Shown piece by piece: positions 50,975-57,658 of a stretch of DNA of 64,000 nucleotides; positions within the stretch are counted from its first letter, which is position 1, and every line of letters begins with the position of its first letter. This DNA comes from an uncultured Acidobacteriota bacterium (GTDB lineage Bacteria; Acidobacteriota; Blastocatellia; RBC074). The DNA is taken from positions 704,001 through 768,000 of the forward strand of contig CAWCKY010000004.1 in the NCBI GenBank assembly GCA_963796275.1, given 5' to 3'. Position numbers and translations under genes: made by a program. A model generated the notes under the pieces. That model ran no database searches. It was not told the origin of the DNA and worked only from the letters and a program-made list of their open reading frames with translations.

Positions 50975-51996
50975 CTATATTCGCGTCTTGTCTGGGTGCA
51001 GCGTCAGTCCGGCTTGCGCCGTCCATTGCTGCACCAGCTCCAAGGCGTTTTGGGCTTCAGCTTCGCTGCGGCACAGGATCACGAAGTCATCGGCATAGCG
51101 CACCATCTCGAATCCGGCCGGCTTGCCATCAGCTGGTCCAGCGGATCGAGATAGATGTTAGACAGCAGCGGACTGATCACTGCTCCTTGCGGCGTCCCTG
51201 CTTCTGGCTTCCAGCTCTTCGCCAGCTCGCTCCAGGACTCCCTGTTTGAGGATACTTGCTGATCAAGCTCCAGCACTCGCCCGTCAGCGACCTTCTCCTC
51301 ACTCGCGGCATCAGCAACTGCTCGTGCGGAATCGTGTCGAAGTAGCTTTTCAGGTCGGCGTCGACGATCCACGTGTATCCTTCCTTGAGCAGTTGATCCA
51401 CTCGTCGCAGCGCATCTTTGCAGCCTCGTCCGGGTCGGAACCCATAGCTGTGTTCGGCGAAGTCCCGTTCGAAGATCGGTTCGATGACGTGGCCGCAGCG
51501 CCGTCTTGCACCACTCGGTCGCGCACCGTCGGTATACCCAGCGGTCGCTTCTCCCTGCTTCCTGGCTTGGCGTATCCATTCCCGCCGTACTCGCTTGCGG
51601 TTGATAACTCCCTTCCTGCAGCTGTTCGCGACAGTTGCTCAGGTTCTGCTTCCAAGTCTGCTGCTCGAACATCTCTATCGTCTGATGGTCTACTCCGGCC
51701 GCTCCGTCGTTGGCTTTCACTTTCGCAAACGCCGCCGCTACAGCATCCGCGGCGCGTACGACCTTATCTATCAGGCTGAACCATTTGCCTCCTTTTACCC
51801 CCTCTTCGAGGGCCGTCAACATCCGTTCCGTCCAGACCGCAGGTTCGACCCAGCCCAGCGGGCGCTGGATTTCTCCGGCTTGTTTAGCTTCTCAGGCACT
51901 GCCGCCGGTCTGTGTTTCCTTCGTGTCGGTCGTTCACGTCTCCACCTTCCTGCGCTCCCTTCGCTCCACTCCCGTTACGGAGCTTCATCGCTACTG
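50975..51996 (-). mobile_element. ltrA: Degenerate, doubly truncated group II intron (RT/maturase pseudogene plus part of the ribozyme DII/DIII region)
   Basis: Spread across frames: VWTERMLTALEEGVKGGKWFSLIDKV, KRPLGIPTVRDRVVQ, VDADLKSYFDTI, GTPQGAVISPLLSNIYL, RYADDFVI, LHPDKTRI. The 5' gtagcgatgaag...ggagcgaaggg resembles DIII. Confidence 0.9.
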
Positions 51997-52180: not shown

Positions 52181-53398
52181 TCACATGAAATTCCGCGTAT
52201 GCAATCCAGCAAGCTCTGCAGCTTCCGCATCGCCGAATCCCAGCTTCTCCAACCGCCCCTTACGTCCTGCGTGCATTTCAGTCTTCAACATTTGCACATG
52301 AGCATAGCCGGCGGCAATATCCTGCGGTCTCCACGACCCCGCCGCCAGCAGAATCAACGCTTCAAACACCTCTTCGTTCAGTCCAGCAGTCTGGGCCAGC
52401 GCCTCGTGCCGCCTGGTGATGGCCATCGCCAAACGCTCGCGTAACGCGGGGTCACCCGCGAGCTGGTACTGCAAATGGCCGACGCCGAATGCCACGTGGC
52501 GTGCTTCGTCCTGCGCCACCAACCGAACGATCTCGCGCGTGAGCGGATCGGGCGCTCGTCGTTCCAGAAACCAGAGCAGGTTCAGAAACGTCCCTTCGCC
52601 CAGCACCGAAAGCAGAAACGATGCTAGCGCGAAGTCCGGCTCATCCAACAGCGTCTTGAGCGATTGCTGCCCGCTTACTGTAGATAAGCCCAGCTCTCTG
52701 CCGCGCAACGCCGCGCGGCGCGTGAAGACCTCGACGTGGCGTGCTTCATCCGCGATCTGTATGGCGAGCAATTGCAGGACTTCCCGAAAATGCGGATGAA
52801 TTTGGGCTATGAAGCGGGCCGGCACCTGCAATGCCGCATTCTCGTTCTCGATGAGATAGGTCATCACCTGGACGACCGCCTGCTCCACCTCTTCATCAAG
52901 CTCGAACGGCTCATCCCATTTAATCGCGGTCTGTGGATTCCATTGCGCAGCAGCCGCCTGCGCATAAAGTTTCGGGGCATTCTCGGCCCAAACCTGCTCT
53001 TTCGTCTGAAGAACATAGTGAAAAGCCGGCCCACCTGCTTCGACCGCGGCCCCGCGTGCGGCGAATCCCCAGTTGGCCGGCGGAGTCGCATTCACCGCAC
53101 CATCCACCCGCGCGTCGGCCCAACCCGCTCGCTCGGCCTGCCGCCAGCGCCCGTCCGCCGCGGCTCCGCGCACAATCCAGGCGACGAACCGATCATCTCC
53201 ATCCACATATTCATGCCCCTGCGCACGACACCAGCCGCGCAGATGCACGGCAAAATCCGGAGCGGCGGCGCGCACGCCGAGCCTGCCGCCGGCGGGCAAT
53301 TCGCGCAAGGCCCTTTTGAGAAGCATATGCGCGCCGGAGGCGAATGAGAGCGCCTCAATATCGATAATCCGAGATGGTGATGTTTCCGTGGTCGTCAT
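52181..53398 (-). CDS. TusA/SirA-like N-domain fused to a ferritin-like diiron-carboxylate domain
   Basis: ID...L.......LKRALR.LP.G..L.V......LRGWCR.QGH lacks the TusA CPxP; E..E/DEARH and EG.F/DEARH diiron ligand pairs. Confidence 0.8.
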   Translation of the reverse strand: MTTTETSPSRIIDIEALSFASGAHMLLKRALRELPAGGRLGVRAAAPDFAVHLRGWCRAQGHEYVDGDDRFVAWIVRGAAADGRWRQAERAGWADARVDGAVNATPPANWGFAARGAAVEAGGPAFHYVLQTKEQVWAENAPKLYAQAAAAQWNPQTAIKWDEPFELDEEVEQAVVQVMTYLIENENAALQVPARFIAQIHPHFREVLQLLAIQIADEARHVEVFTRRAALRGRELGLSTVSGQQSLKTLLDEPDFALASFLLSVLGEGTFLNLLWFLERRAPDPLTREIVRLVAQDEARHVAFGVGHLQYQLAGDPALRERLAMAITRRHEALAQTAGLNEEVFEALILLAAGSWRPQDIAAGYAHVQMLKTEMHAGRKGRLEKLGFGDAEAAELAGLHTRNFM

Positions 53399-54236
53399 AA
53401 AACTTCAACTCCTCCACGGCCCGTTCTAGCATCTGATAGCCGGTAATGCGCCCGGGCCTCCACGCCTTCAATCCCTCCAGGTCAAGCAGCGGGCGAACCT
53501 CCGCATCATCGTAAGACATTCCCAGCAACAACTCGCGAAAGCGGTTCATAGGTTCGCGCGGCGCGTCATCGAGCGCGGTGAAATTGCAATGATCGTATGG
53601 AGCGGTCTGTGCCAGCACGCGCGTCGCTCCCGCCGGCAGCGTCCCTTCGTTGATAAATAGCAGGTGATTAGCGTCGATCATACAGGCAGCATCCACAGCG
53701 CCGGCAATCAGGGCGCGCGCTGCATCGCGCTCTCCTCCGATGTGATCTCCGTGTTTGCCGACCAGCATGTCATAGCGCACCACTTCGCAATCGACAAAGG
53801 GGTGCCCCCCATTCGCCCGCAAGTGAGAGAGCGGCAAAAGCGTGGCCTGCGGCGAATCTAACGCGCCGACGCCGATCTTCTTTCCCTTCAAATCTGCGAT
53901 GGATTGAATCGGTGAATCCGCTTTGATCACGATGACCGAAGTCAGGTTCTGATCCGTATCGCGCATCGCAATAGCTTCGGCTCGCTTCCCATGCGATCTG
54001 GCCAGCCGTTCCGCTCGCACCCACGCCAGCGGCGAGTTCCAGGCGATATGGAAGTGCCCCGCGAGATGCGCCTCGACCTGGCGCTCATAGTTTGAATAGA
54101 GCACATAATCAAAGGCCAAACCGTTTTTATTGAACCATCCTTTAAATCCTTCCCAGATAGTGACCACTTTCGGATCGTAAGCAACAGCACCAAGTATCAA
54201 AGTTTCGTTATTCATAATAAATTTGTGGTTAACCAT
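53355..54236 (-). CDS. PhnD/SsuA-fold solute-binding-family protein without signal peptide
   Basis: LGAVAYDPKVVTIW, SVIVIK.DS.I..IADLKGK.IG.G..DS...T; no hydrophobic N-terminus. Alternative start 54215. Confidence 0.82.
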   Translation of the reverse strand: MVNHKFIMNNETLILGAVAYDPKVVTIWEGFKGWFNKNGLAFDYVLYSNYERQVEAHLAGHFHIAWNSPLAWVRAERLARSHGKRAEAIAMRDTDQNLTSVIVIKADSPIQSIADLKGKKIGVGALDSPQATLLPLSHLRANGGHPFVDCEVVRYDMLVGKHGDHIGGERDAARALIAGAVDAACMIDANHLLFINEGTLPAGATRVLAQTAPYDHCNFTALDDAPREPMNRFRELLLGMSYDDAEVRPLLDLEGLKAWRPGRITGYQMLERAVEELKFYDDHGNITISDYRY

Positions 54237-54280: not shown

Positions 54281-55420
54281 TTAAAAAAGCGGCAGGCCCG
54301 TTAGCGACTTGCCGATGAAATCGTAGAGCGCGTCCGCGGTCGGAGCCATGACGACCGAGGCGCGCGCATCGCGAAAGTTCCGCTCCACGCCGATTTCCTT
54401 TCGGAATGCCGCGCCGCCGCACAGCCTCATCGCGAGATCGGTAACTTCCGTGGCGATCTCGCCTGCTGCGGCTTTGCTTTCGAGCACCCTCATCATCGCG
54501 TCCGCGCGTCCGCTTGCGAGCGCGGCGAGCGCGTCATCCAACAATGCTCGCAGGAGGTCGACCTTGATCTTCATCTTCGCGAGATATGCGCGATTAATCG
54601 GCTGGTCGGCCAGCGTCTGGTTGAGGTGCTCATAACGCGTCGTCGTCAGGTGTGTGATGGTCTTCTGGAGCGCCGCCTCGCTGATGCCGAGCGAAATGGA
54701 CGCGCTCATCAACTGAAAATAAGGCAGGACGGTTCCCATCATAATCTCGAAGCCCTGCCCATCCGCGCCGAGTATCGCATTCGCGCCGACGATCACGGCC
54801 TCCGCCTGCACGGGCGACGAGTGATTGCCGCGCATGCCCATTCCGTTAAAAGGCGCGTTGATGCTCAATCCCGCGGCATTTGCCGGCACCAGCCAGATCG
54901 TGCTCGCGCCATCGGCCGCTAACGGCTTACTCGACCAGACGTACGAATCGGCCTGCCCGGCGGATGTCGCCCAGCTCTTCTTGGCGTCCAGACGCACGCC
55001 GTTATCCGCTCTGATCGCCGTGCTCAGCGGCGCCCAGAATTGGCTGCGCGAACCGCTCTCGGAGAAAGCGAGCGTAGTGATATGTTGGCCGCGCGCTACG
55101 TCTGCACGCACGTCGCGCGGGCCGAACGCTTCGATGACGGCCGCGCCGCAATAATGCATGCAAACGATCATCGCCGTCGAAGCGCATTCGCGGGAGATGC
55201 GCTCGACCACCTGCACGGCGGCGCGATGTCCTTCGCCCAGACCGCCGATATTCTTGCTGCTGATAAGACCCAGCAGACCGGCTTGTCCCATGGCCGTCAG
55301 CGCGGCGCGCGGAAAAGCGCCGGAGCTATCTGTTTCAGCGGCCGCAGGCGCGATGATTTCTATTGAAATGCGCTCGATTAGCTCGAGCCAGGAAGGTGCA
55401 TTCGTGGCTACCATATACAT
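54281..55420 (-). CDS. Acyl-CoA dehydrogenase family flavoprotein
   Basis: FP......MG..GLLG, LAFSE.GS.S, K.W.TS, GM.GN.S, CGG.AF...VER.FRDARA motifs; GGAGG RBS. Confidence 0.92.
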   Translation of the reverse strand: MYMVATNAPSWLELIERISIEIIAPAAAETDSSGAFPRAALTAMGQAGLLGLISSKNIGGLGEGHRAAVQVVERISRECASTAMIVCMHYCGAAVIEAFGPRDVRADVARGQHITTLAFSESGSRSQFWAPLSTAIRADNGVRLDAKKSWATSAGQADSYVWSSKPLAADGASTIWLVPANAAGLSINAPFNGMGMRGNHSSPVQAEAVIVGANAILGADGQGFEIMMGTVLPYFQLMSASISLGISEAALQKTITHLTTTRYEHLNQTLADQPINRAYLAKMKIKVDLLRALLDDALAALASGRADAMMRVLESKAAAGEIATEVTDLAMRLCGGAAFRKEIGVERNFRDARASVVMAPTADALYDFIGKSLTGLPLF

Positions 55421-55497
55421 AACCTCCGCCCGGATAGACTGATGTCTTGTTGTATAGCTCTGGCTTCGGAGCCCACGCGCTCCCAGGAGGCGAGTGA

Positions 55498-55560
55498 CTA
55501 ACGAAGGCAGGAGAATCGCATCACGTGCGATTGTGGATTAACTCATCGGTAGAATCCCAT
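55498..55560 (-). CDS. Candidate leader peptide MGFYR(UGA)VNPQSHVMRFSCLR*, or 5-aa MGFYR* without readthrough
   Basis: AAAGGA RBS 5 nt before ATG 55560; in-frame TGA at 55545-55543; hairpin AATCGCA-CGTGA-TGCGATT starts 11 nt after it; TAG at 55500-55498. Confidence 0.45.
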
Positions 55561-55598
55561 ATGATTCCTTTATTCGTACTTAAAGTGGATGAGAAGTG

Positions 55599-55627
55599 AT
55601 GGTATACGAGAAGAGTGTGAAAAACAA
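55599..55627 (-). promoter_or_regulatory. sigma70-type promoter TTGTTT-N17-TACCAT for the leader and acyl-CoA dehydrogenase operon
   Basis: -35 at 55627-55622 and -10 at 55604-55599. Confidence 0.45.
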
Positions 55628-55830
55628 AAAAGCCTGGATCGTCGCGTTGAATTAGCCGTATATCTTTGGCCTTTGCAAAATAAATGCAACACCATAAATC
55701 CCCCCCGAGGTAGTCGGTCGATCGTTAAGTCCCAACCTAACTGATCCTCTTTTCACCAATCCCGCCCATTCCGTCGGTGGTTTTCGTGAAAGATGCTGCT
55801 TCACGCGAAAATTCAGGCAATGATAAGCCT

Positions 55831-55911
55831 ACTACCTAACGCCATATTTTTTTCTTGCACCTGTGGTAAAAACCTTTGTAAAATTATCGAGTTGGAAGGC
55901 GTTAGGGTAAG
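55831..55911 (+). promoter_or_regulatory. Promoter TTGCAC-N18-TAAAAT flanked by inverted CCTAACGCC / GGCGTTAGG
   Basis: -35 at 55855-55860; -10 at 55879-55884; IR arms at 55835-55843 and 55898-55906. Confidence 0.55.
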
Positions 55912-55972
55912 TAATACGTTCTTTTCGATTCGCTCGAGATCATTTCAAATCGAACTCTTCGTCTGAGGAGCC

Positions 55973-57658
55973 ATGTCAATGATTCACCTCGCACGCATCA
56001 TTCTTCCCGGCATCATCAATTCACTATTTTTCGCCGTCATCCTTGCCCAGAACCCGTCTGTGCGCACGGCCTCGATCAGCGGGCGAGTGACGGTCGATGG
56101 AAAGCCGGCGCCCAACGGCCTGGTGACCGTGGTCGAGGTCGATCCCAAAATAGAAGGCGCTCGCATCATTCAATCGAACGGCCGCGAAGCCGTCGATCGG
56201 CTCGGATATAAAGCCACGACCAATGGGGATGGCAGCTACCTTCTCACCGGCTTACCGGCAGGACAATTTAGAATTTCGGCTTTATCGCTTGCATACGTAC
56301 CGGATGATAAAGCTCAGGATGAAGCAGGCACAAAACAGATAACGTTGGACGATGGCGAAGCACGCGAGGATGTGGACTTCGCGTTGATACGAGGCGGGGT
56401 GGTTACGGGCCGCGTCACTGATGATGAGAACAGGCCTCAGATCGGGAGGACTGTCAGGTTGACCCTTCTGCTCGACGATGGTCAGAAAAGAGAGGTTTCC
56501 CGGAGAAGAGGACAATCGTTTGAAACCGATGACCGCGGCGTTTTTAGAATCTACGGCCTGCGAGCAGGACGATATATCGCCAACGCGGAAGCCGAGAACT
56601 ACAGATTGGATGGTAAGAAGTTTGAACTCACCTATCATCCGAACACGGCCAATGAAGAGCAAGCACGAGTCTTCGAGGTTAAAACTGGGAGCGAGATTGC
56701 GGGCATCGATATCAGGTTGGTGAATCTCCCGAAGACCTATGAGATCCTGGGCCGAGTGACTGAAGCTGAGAACGGAAAGCCAGTCCCGCAAATCAGGGTC
56801 TATTGCAGAGCGGTGACGAAGCCAGAGGATATATATGGCAACGGTGTGTCGGACGGGCTAACCGACCTTCAGGGCAACTTTCATATGGCCGGTTTGAAAC
56901 CGGGTAAATATAGAGTCGTCTTGAACTCTAGGAATTCTGATCATCCTTTCTATGGCGAGGGTAAATATTTCGAGATAAATAGCGAGAACGCCAGTGGAAT
57001 CGATTTTATAGTCAACCGGGGCGGCACAGTCAGCGGAGTGGTCGCATTTGAAGGCGGCAAAGACAGATCAATCGAAGCCAAACTCTATCAAACCCAGGTT
57101 TGGATGATCGTCACGCGCGATCTCGGTAAAGGGCCTAAGACGGAAGCAACAAATTTCTCACAGCTTTCTCCGGACGGGAGCTTTCACTTCATCGGATTAC
57201 CACCGGGAAAACTGCGTTTAGGTTTTTTGAACAGCAATGGCCCATTCTTCGTGCTTCGCGTTGAACGCGACGGTATCGTACAAACCGATGATATCAATGT
57301 CGGGCCCGGAGAGAACATCTCTGGAGTAAAGCTCATCACCGCGCACGGCGACGGAGTTATTCGCGGTGAGGTGAAAGTCACGGGTGGAACGCTACCTGAG
57401 AACTGCGATCTCTCTGTTATGGCCAGGCTGATCGGTCAAAGTTTCGGCCAGCCAGTGAGGGCCGACGGGAAGGGCAGATTTCTGATCGAGGGGCTACTAC
57501 CCGGCGAATATAGCTGGGAAATAAGTTACTCGCTTAAACCCGGAATGAGGACGACGCAGTCGGTTGTCGATCAAAATGTTTATGTCAGAAGCGGAGCCGA
57601 TACCACTGCCACCATTACACTGAACCTGAACGGTAAGATCAATAGAGCCGATAAATGA
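55973..57658 (+). CDS. Secreted carboxypeptidase-regulatory-like repeat protein
   Basis: Signal peptide; repeated ISGRV / GGVVTGRVTD / TDDRG.FRIYGL.AGRY units. Confidence 0.85.
   Translation: MSMIHLARIILPGIINSLFFAVILAQNPSVRTASISGRVTVDGKPAPNGLVTVVEVDPKIEGARIIQSNGREAVDRLGYKATTNGDGSYLLTGLPAGQFRISALSLAYVPDDKAQDEAGTKQITLDDGEAREDVDFALIRGGVVTGRVTDDENRPQIGRTVRLTLLLDDGQKREVSRRRGQSFETDDRGVFRIYGLRAGRYIANAEAENYRLDGKKFELTYHPNTANEEQARVFEVKTGSEIAGIDIRLVNLPKTYEILGRVTEAENGKPVPQIRVYCRAVTKPEDIYGNGVSDGLTDLQGNFHMAGLKPGKYRVVLNSRNSDHPFYGEGKYFEINSENASGIDFIVNRGGTVSGVVAFEGGKDRSIEAKLYQTQVWMIVTRDLGKGPKTEATNFSQLSPDGSFHFIGLPPGKLRLGFLNSNGPFFVLRVERDGIVQTDDINVGPGENISGVKLITAHGDGVIRGEVKVTGGTLPENCDLSVMARLIGQSFGQPVRADGKGRFLIEGLLPGEYSWEISYSLKPGMRTTQSVVDQNVYVRSGADTTATITLNLNGKINRADK

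Follow-up and report, generated by a model that had tools for sequence, protein, structure and literature searches.

A conserved UGA-containing leader with a SECIS-like hairpin, a candidate selenocysteine attenuator, precedes a three-gene operon in a family of Acidobacteriota

Bacterial sensing of selenium status is largely an open matter, and the published examples that we found, as far as the passages cited below describe them, are the hairpin in front of selAB in E. coli and the fdhF(Sec) gene of Treponema primitia. A locus in an uncultured Acidobacteriota bacterium raises the question of whether a short leader peptide can gauge the capacity to decode selenocysteine (Sec). The locus lies within 64,000 nucleotides of contig CAWCKY010000004.1 (assembly GCA_963796275.1, positions 704,001 to 768,000 of the forward strand), a stretch that we call the window and to which coordinates refer unless another contig is named. 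On its minus strand a 20-codon open reading frame (ORF) with an in-frame UGA, followed by a hairpin that resembles a selenocysteine insertion sequence (SECIS), stands upstream of three genes, the first of which encodes an acyl-CoA-dehydrogenase-like (ACAD) protein, the second a protein like substrate-binding proteins (SBP) and the third a protein with TusA-like and di-iron domains. A preliminary description, made from the sequence alone, had proposed a selenium-sensing translational switch. We hold with moderate confidence that the element is a Sec-recoding, cis-acting leader of this ACAD / SBP-like / TusA-di-iron operon and that it senses Sec-decoding capacity.

We read the minus strand of the window between 55200 and 55900 and located there all the elements of the preliminary description: the ribosome-binding site, the 20-codon UGA ORF, the 7-bp hairpin, the CCTCC motif and the GGAGG of the ACAD gene lie exactly where it had placed them. 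Together with the strands of two helices derived from the alignment described below, the features are as follows.

55627-55622 and 55604-55599, minus strand: promoter-like hexamers TTGTTT and TACCAT, with a 17-nt spacer
55582-55591, minus strand: conserved box CATCCACTTT, between the -10 hexamer and the Shine-Dalgarno (SD) sequence of the leader
55571-55566, minus strand: SD sequence AAAGGA of the leader ORF, 5 nt 5' of its ATG
55560-55498, minus strand: leader ORF of 20 codons plus TAG, MGFYR-U-VNPQSHVMRFSCLR
55545-55543, minus strand: in-frame UGA at codon 6, candidate Sec codon, outside every predicted helix
55532-55514, minus strand: P1, SECIS-like hairpin with a perfect 7-bp stem and the 5-nt loop CGTGA
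55496-55510, minus strand: 5' strand of P2 (RNAalifold helix), made of the last leader codons including the TAG stop
55477-55491, minus strand: P3, a covarying hairpin of the anti-SD CCTCC and an SD-like GGGAG strand
55460-55474, minus strand: 3' strand of P2, GGGCTCCGAAGCCAG, with the 3' strand of P3 as alternative partner (helix P4)
55427-55423, minus strand: SD sequence GGAGG of the ACAD-like gene, predicted target of the anti-SD

Translated with TGA as U, the leader ORF gives MGFYRUVNPQSHVMRFSCLR and ends at the TAG at 55500-55498. In this copy the P1 stem begins at nucleotide 11 after the UGA and the loop begins after 17 nt, and the anti-SD (CCTCC, 55490-55486, minus strand) lies 8-12 nt beyond the TAG. 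The peptide matched no family in Pfam or NCBIfam, and a consensus scan of 55380-55990 returned no terminator-like site. The promoter was borne out in part: the hexamers and their 17-nt spacer are present, but the match to consensus is weak (seven of 12 positions by hand count) and the consensus scan did not list it.

The leader recurs in related genomes. An ACAD orthologue is present in nine of 61 relatives at E <=1e-60 and in 16 of 87 genomes of the family at E <=1e-120, the window's own genome counted in both. Upstream regions were compared at 17 orthologous loci, ten of which carry the leader ORF. A covariance model built on the leader found exactly one copy per genome in 12 of the 87 family genomes, and thereby added two copies, one at a locus whose contig ends within the ACAD gene (L060) and one in genome G478 (L064); the family tallies include an unpublished genome, G004, which affects the denominators and the selB count only. 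Eleven of the 12 copies precede an ACAD orthologue, and the twelfth, L064, is the remnant of an operon deletion. Outside the family, the model had no match in 112 genomes of nine other families of the class. Across the phylum (401 genomes), a strict pattern allowing up to two mismatches gave nine matches in eight genomes, compared with 11 in a reversed control, and its sole exact match was the window's own copy. Contigs from three soil DNA runs held fragments only and gave no further information on the leader.

Mean column identity of the leader alignment is 62-66%. All 12 copies have an ATG, then exactly 12 nt, then TGA at codon 6, and a purine-rich SD-like run precedes the ATG in each of the 11 copies with upstream sequence (L027 is cut by a contig end). 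The stop at codon 6 is never TAA or TAG, and never TGY, though it lies in no predicted helix. A second in-frame stop follows 13-16 codons after the TGA in every copy; it is TAG in the 11 intact loci, where it always falls inside P2, and TGA in L064. The only change in length between TGA and stop is a 6-nt insertion (L051 and L064), and it keeps the frame. Residues before the UGA follow the pattern M-[R/K/G]-[F/Y]-x-[R/N/S/T] and the UGA is followed by V, I, M or F, while the codons between ATG and TGA vary (codon 2 is AGA, AAA, GGA or CGT). Codons 7-10 are unpaired, and the entropies of their first, second and third positions, 3.32, 1.83 and 4.25 bits in this small and related sample, rank as would be expected of coding sequence.

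Beyond residue 9 the peptide tracks the RNA helices. L045 and L060 have four compensated stem pairs with very different amino acids, and the peptide of L045 reads SRRRGASSSRIR where that of the window reads PQSHVMRFSCLR. The same holds for the Cys codon near the end of the ORF, to which the preliminary description had attributed a possible role in sulfur sensing. The aligned position is Cys in six of 12 copies, CGC (Arg) in four and another codon in two, and three of the 12 peptides contain no Cys at all. Because the T-to-C change at this codon is compensated in P2 (pair 83:141 is UA in five copies, CG in three and UG in two), the constraint is one of RNA structure rather than of the amino acid, and we have dropped the suggestion of sulfur sensing.

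The hairpin itself shows strong covariation. Over the 12 sequences, 94.8% of 96 cells in P1 are paired, compared with 17-47% in slid controls, and six of eight pairs (16 cells) are changed on both sides. Five cells are G-U, so that the pairing belongs only to the RNA of this strand. We compared P1 with the model of bacterial SECIS elements (bSECIS) given in the legend to Fig. 2 of PMC13188914: a loop of 3-9 nt, an upper stem of 4-16 bp, a UGA-to-loop distance of 16-37 nt, a G in the first two loop positions (mostly N1-G-[G|U]-N-N2) and a minimum free energy of -7.5 kcal/mol or lower. All 12 copies agree with the model in loop size, stem length, loop G[G/U] and spacing. Their loops are 3 or 5 nt and their stems 6-9 bp, the hairpin is always inside the ORF, and the distance from the UGA to the start of the stem is 10-11 nt, except in L051 and L064 with 16-17 nt; the loop lies 17-18 nt from the UGA in ten copies and 24 nt in two. 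The loop G is an invariant column, followed by G in seven copies and U in five. Further support for a SECIS-like element is provided by the fdhA genes of the same family (four genes and two paralogues), in which the SECIS has a 7-8 bp stem, a loop of GUC, GUU or GGUCU and a spacing of 18-19 nt; the geometry of P1 is within 1-2 nt of these.

A hairpin alone is no proof, since 1026 of the 335,167 TGAs genome-wide are followed by one under a definition slightly looser than the geometry of this leader, and a loose bSECIS-like test is passed by 3.9% of random TGAs. The strict geometry (a stem of at least 7 bp, this spacing and a loop G[G/T]) was found at none of 6000 random TGAs on contig C3. We also searched for the full architecture, defined as an SD-led short ORF with TGA plus hairpin, an in-frame stop, no overlapping long ORF and a long ORF within 400 nt downstream. 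It occurs once in the 9.46-Mb genome, at this locus; no other leader of the same build was found in the genome, and hence no regulon under that definition. Because conservation is accompanied by covariation in 12 genomes, sequence comparison indicates that the leader is a conserved element and not a product of chance.

The genome has the machinery that Sec decoding needs. The preliminary description had named a lack of this machinery as grounds for refutation, which does not apply because selA (559.8 bits), selB (335.9 bits), selD (358.7 bits) and tRNA-Sec (62.6 bits, also called as tRNA-SeC by ARAGORN) are all present. In the same genome, fdhA (G000 C6:913900-916929, minus strand) and selD (C7:302299-303228, plus strand) each contain one in-frame TGA followed by a hairpin, and both are probably selenoprotein genes. 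A scan for TGA plus hairpin returned 52 sites at which the TGA has a long open frame before and after it, for example at G000 C4:674190 (plus strand; 103 and 431 codons, with a 9-bp stem) and C3:1533370 (plus strand; 226 and 304 codons), and some of these may be further selenoprotein genes.

Downstream of P1 the alignment contains two more conserved helices. RNAalifold pairs columns 82-96 with 128-142 as P2 (12 pairs, 92.4% paired, five pairs changed on both sides), whose partners are the last leader codons with the stop and, about 30 nt further on, a GGCUCCGAAGYCRG stretch. P2 encloses P3, where columns 106-111 pair with 115-121 (91.7% paired, four of six pairs changed on both sides) and the consensus anti-SD GCCUCY is paired with an SD-like GGAGCGC strand. 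Taken jointly, P1, P2 and P3 are paired in 92.7% of 259 cells with 15 of 26 pairs changed on both sides, compared with 32-40% paired and 2-5 such pairs in slid controls. The alternative helix P4, between the 3' strands of P3 and P2, is paired in 88.9% of 90 cells against 18-54% when slid, a count that leans in its favour because the helix was drawn from L046. The anti-SD that the preliminary description had pointed to after the TAG is likewise conserved and complementary to the SD of the ACAD gene. Cognate anti-SD/SD duplexes range from -7.2 to -20.7 kcal/mol with a mean of -15.3, and when partners are swapped the mean is -13.5 (permutation p = 0.03); in three of 11 loci the cognate partner is the top-ranked one, and the kin compared are not independent.

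To these counts we added constrained folds of the stretch from the last six leader codons to the ACAD start at 11 loci. When the SD window was forced open, the minimum-energy fold was P2 plus P3 in nine of the 11. When the 3' end of the leader ORF (uORF) was blocked, the stretch after the stop paired with the ACAD SD window in all 11 (4-11 of 12 nt), and inside this anti-SD:SD pairing lay either P4 or a hairpin of the P2 3' strand with itself. The energy difference between the two states ranges only from -7.1 to +3.8 kcal/mol. Modelling and covariation thus describe two mutually exclusive RNA structures, P2 plus P3 on the one hand and P4 plus anti-SD:SD on the other. The distance from the end of P1 to the ACAD SD is 86 nt in the window, and that from the leader stop to the ACAD start is 57-168 nt across loci. 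Since there is no intrinsic terminator, the output of such a switch would probably be occlusion of the SD.

The Sec-recoding leader that we favour would work as a five-strand translational attenuator. A ribosome would start on the 20-codon ORF and arrive at the UGA at codon 6, at which point P1 would stand at the mRNA channel entrance in SECIS geometry. In the absence of the Sec-tRNA complex, release factor 2 would end translation after five residues and P2 would stay intact; P2 would enclose P3, the anti-SD CCUCC would be held by the SD-like strand, and the ACAD SD would be free. With SelB-GTP-Sec-tRNA(Sec) present, the UGA would be read as Sec and the ribosome would continue for 14 more codons, as far as the 5' strand of P2, where the UAG lies. 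Removal of this strand by the ribosome would allow the 3' strand of P2 to pair with the SD-like strand as P4, or at some loci to fold on itself instead, and the freed anti-SD would pair with the ACAD SD and turn the operon off. The models suggest, therefore, the reverse of the direction in the preliminary description, where readthrough was to switch the operon on: in the constrained folds an occupied leader 3' end frees the anti-SD for the SD, and ample Sec would probably mean off and Sec shortage on.

Several observations weigh against this interpretation or parts of it. The sign of the switch is weakly founded, because ensemble SD accessibilities in the models shift inconsistently: with the leader 3' end blocked, accessibility is lower at four of 11 loci, higher at two and unchanged at five. 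Besides, part of the anti-SD would be hidden by any ribosome that stays on the UAG. The alignment of orthologous upstream regions, which the preliminary description had proposed, gave the stem covariation but not the exchange between UGA and Cys codons; Cys (TGY) stands at codon 6 in none of the 12 copies, and the classical test by Sec/Cys homologues thus came out negative. The reading frame after the UGA is not distinctive, as the other two frames are also mostly free of stops. With regard to P1, the loop dinucleotide is GG rather than GU in seven of 12 copies, and the bare contiguous stem reaches -7.5 kcal/mol or lower in nine of 12, the window copy having -6.2; the published criterion may refer to a longer element than the bare stem. 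No Rfam family matches the leader, and none of the Rfam SECIS families (SECIS_2 to SECIS_5) matches it at E up to 10 in 55000-56400, while in a control SECIS_3 scores 62.3 bits on the fdhA gene of this genome. We give this miss little weight because the SECIS_3 model also matches coding sequence around the fdhA hairpin. The leader is missing from seven of the 17 orthologous operons (L025, L026, L030, L050, L052, L031 and L032). Its co-occurrence with selB is uninformative because selB is found in nearly every genome of the family (76 of 87); all 12 genomes with the leader have it at scores above cut-off. Finally, searches of Pfam, NCBIfam and the Atlas gave no demonstrated link to selenium for any of the three operon proteins.

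In the main rival the leader ORF has just five codons (M-[R/K/G]-[F/Y]-x-x), the UGA is always a stop and a structured leader works independently of selenium, by release-factor-2-dependent termination, ribosome pausing, or a bound protein or ligand. The N-terminal residues are indeed the best-conserved part of the peptide, with Arg encoded by both AGA and CGT, and the part after the hairpin is not conserved as amino acids when L045 is compared with the window; the lack of a Cys variant and the openness of the other frames fit as well. A five-codon ORF would moreover behave just as the Sec-recoding leader is predicted to behave when selenium is absent. It nevertheless leaves unexplained why the codon-6 stop is exclusively TGA when it takes part in no helix, why all 12 hairpins carry the SECIS loop signature and spacing and resemble the fdhA SECIS, and why the one indel keeps the frame and the in-frame stop lies inside P2 at the 11 intact loci. 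For these reasons we consider a selenium-independent five-codon ORF unlikely.

A second possibility keeps the link to selenium and takes P1 as an operator for SelB, as at E. coli selAB, so that Sec insertion itself would not be the signal: bound SelB-GTP-Sec-tRNA would block or stall the leader ribosome or remodel the RNA. The agreement of P1 with the SECIS model would be explained, and there is a precedent, in the part of PMC13449736 that we cite, in a SECIS-like hairpin of the 5' untranslated region (UTR), a binding site of the SelB complex that represses selAB. The E. coli hairpin is, however, described there as lying 3 nt from the SD that it controls, whereas P1 is separated from the ACAD start by the rest of the leader ORF and a further 57-168 nt. 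Nor would it account for the conserved ATG, its 12-nt distance from the UGA, the UGA itself or the placing of the stop within P2, and such an operator is improbable.

If the product rather than the act of translation mattered, the ORF could encode a free-standing selenopeptide of 20 residues, either a redox peptide or a precursor like those of ribosomally synthesised and post-translationally modified peptides (RiPPs), that works with the operon enzymes. Such a peptide would have the conserved start, the SD, the UGA with its SECIS-like hairpin and the constant linkage to the same operon. The residues after position 9 follow the RNA helices, however, and not a peptide pattern; a Cys partner is lacking in three of 12 peptides, and the peptide has no match in Pfam or NCBIfam. 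Scans with both databases found no RiPP maturase family in the three operon genes or the divergent neighbour, and the operon exists without the ORF at seven of 17 loci. The RiPP-like precursor that the preliminary description had listed is unlikely on these grounds, and a selenopeptide of any kind is in our estimate quite improbable. We give just as little credence to a non-coding structured RNA, a riboswitch or protein-binding leader in which ATG, TGA and TAG are kept for reasons of RNA structure. Three covarying helices speak for it, as do alternative folds of a type common in expression platforms, but the consensus fold leaves the region between the SD and P1 unpaired, and yet the SD, the ATG, a fixed 15-nt distance and the TGA are kept in all copies; no Rfam family offers a counterpart. 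Last, a DNA palindrome serving as transcription-factor operator, or a chance hairpin, would account for the perfect inverted repeat seen in the window alone and for the many hairpins that follow TGAs in this genome (1026 sites), but it is extremely improbable, since the arms change sequence and keep pairing across 12 genomes (16 cells changed on both sides), the G-U pairs would be A-C mismatches on the other strand, and the full architecture is unique in the genome. We rejected the DNA operator, which the preliminary description had left as an alternative, because G-U pairs and compensatory changes preserve pairing and not sequence; the chance origin that it had not excluded is settled against by conservation with covariation.

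Leader-peptide attenuators are well known from trpL and hisL, and the erm and cat leaders provide translational attenuation by sequestration of an SD. The Sec-recoding leader would share with all of these a short ORF on which progress that depends on charged tRNA selects between exclusive RNA folds and so sets downstream expression. It would differ from the trpL/hisL type in that a stop codon, recoded with the help of SelB and a SECIS, would take the place of a run of sense codons as sensor, and in that no intrinsic terminator was found as an alternative fold. The principle of trp operon attenuation is set out in the cited part of PMC3892789, whose authors state there that an attenuation device based on a rare amino acid had not been reported in nature. 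The same source describes selenium-dependent transcript elongation at fdhF(Sec) of T. primitia. In that system, as is proposed here, selenium controls expression through translation of a UGA with its SECIS, and a ribosome that cannot read the UGA as Sec loses its coupling to the sequence that follows; according to the passage, the site is in the selenoenzyme gene and acts on its own mRNA, whereas here a dedicated leader would act on genes that do not encode selenoproteins.

Compared with bSECIS elements of the fdhF/fdhA type in selenoprotein genes, P1 has the same position 3' of an in-frame UGA and inside the ORF, the same small G[G/U] loop and a spacing of 17-24 nt. The host ORF is different: it has 20 codons, lies in a 5' leader and has no Cys homologue and no enzyme function, and its hairpin matches no Rfam SECIS family. 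The nearest regulatory parallel is the SECIS-like hairpin in the selAB 5' UTR of E. coli (Thanbichler and Bock 2002, as reported in the part of PMC13449736 used here), a SelB-binding repressor site located 3 nt before the selA SD. As described there, a SECIS-type leader hairpin serves regulation by the Sec-decoding machinery and not synthesis of a selenoenzyme, as is proposed for P1, but that leader has no uORF and no UGA, its hairpin is beside the SD, and its targets are Sec-synthesis genes. P1 by contrast follows a UGA in a leader predicted to be translated, is far from the regulated SD and not next to that of selA or selB, and precedes an operon other than sel; nor does a maturase gene stand beside it, as would be usual for a RiPP precursor. 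Full-text literature searches for a Sec-codon leader or uORF in bacteria returned nothing relevant, and the word 'leader' is absent from the main text of a 2026 review of selenoproteomes (PMC13188914). From its sequence features the leader appears to combine two known kinds of element, a SECIS and a leader-peptide switch, in a form of which we found no description in the literature.

We therefore put forward, as a tentative proposal, a natural selenocysteine attenuator in which a 20-codon UGA/SECIS leader gauges SelB-Sec-tRNA and steers a non-selenoprotein operon by an anti-SD switch. If true, this would define a response to selenium starvation in soil Acidobacteria and the ACAD / SBP-like / TusA-di-iron operon would stand out as a pathway for sparing or scavenging selenium. 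A sensor leader based on UGA recoding would extend ribosome-mediated attenuation to the 21st amino acid, and the leader would be a small, testable readout of the capacity to decode Sec. Selenium regulation would moreover be indicated for an uncharacterised operon of three genes with ties to mycobacterial Rv1679/Rv1680. The operon consists of the following genes.

54281-55420, minus strand: gene 1, acyl-CoA-dehydrogenase-fold protein of 379 aa with all four Pfam ACAD domains
53355-54236, minus strand: gene 2, SBP-like protein (Phosphonate-bd / NMT1 fold) of 293 aa, PF12974 at 108 bits
52181-53398, minus strand: gene 3, protein of 405 aa with a TusA-like N-terminal domain and a ferritin-like di-iron domain

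The best NCBIfam match of gene 1 is NF049984 (Rv1679 family) at 395.7 bits, under the 600-bit cut-off, and gene 2 scores 240.5 bits with NF049985 (Rv1680 family), under a cut-off of 400 bits. The score of gene 2 with TIGR04553, a putative selenate SBP, is just 52 bits against a cut-off of 250. The Pfam matches of gene 3 are weak and below the gathering score; its di-iron part is AurF / R2lox-like, and its closest Atlas clusters consist of hypothetical or ferritin-like proteins, of which 17-27% carry AurF. Gene 3 was found in 16 of 18 genomes searched and adjoins genes 1 and 2 wherever the contig allows. The divergent neighbours of the operon encode CarboxypepD_reg-type proteins. The ACAD frame opens with two ATGs six nt apart (at 55420 and 55414; 55406-55420, minus strand), and orthologues align from the second (ATGG...), so that the true start of the ACAD protein may be 55414.

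Three loci that have lost parts of the arrangement are of interest. In L064 (G478:C32:179962-180102, minus strand) genes 1 and 2 (ACAD and SBP-like) have been deleted together with gene 3 except for its last ~30 codons, which come immediately after the leader; the UGA and hairpin are intact, and the stop lies two codons upstream. L025 (genome G006) and L026 (G020) belong to the same genus as the leader-bearing L027, L045, L046 and L060. Their orthologous operons (80-82% ACAD identity) are without uORF and hairpin and look like natural leader deletions, and L025 retains the promoter box and a CCGAAGCC fragment. The stretch around TACCAT in the window, TCGTATACCATCAC, recurs at related loci including the leaderless L025 and L026, and variants of the downstream box (CAYYCACTTT) are present at L025, L026, L029, L045, L046 and L060, that is, even where the uORF is not. 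The TCGTATACCATCAC stretch and the CAYYCACTTT box (55582-55604, minus strand) may together be a core promoter with an operator close to the start site.

Directly downstream of the operon, an ORF of 247 aa (51079-51822, minus strand) has a weak match to the reverse-transcriptase family PF00078 (E = 2e-4, below the gathering score) and may be a fragment of a group II intron or retron.

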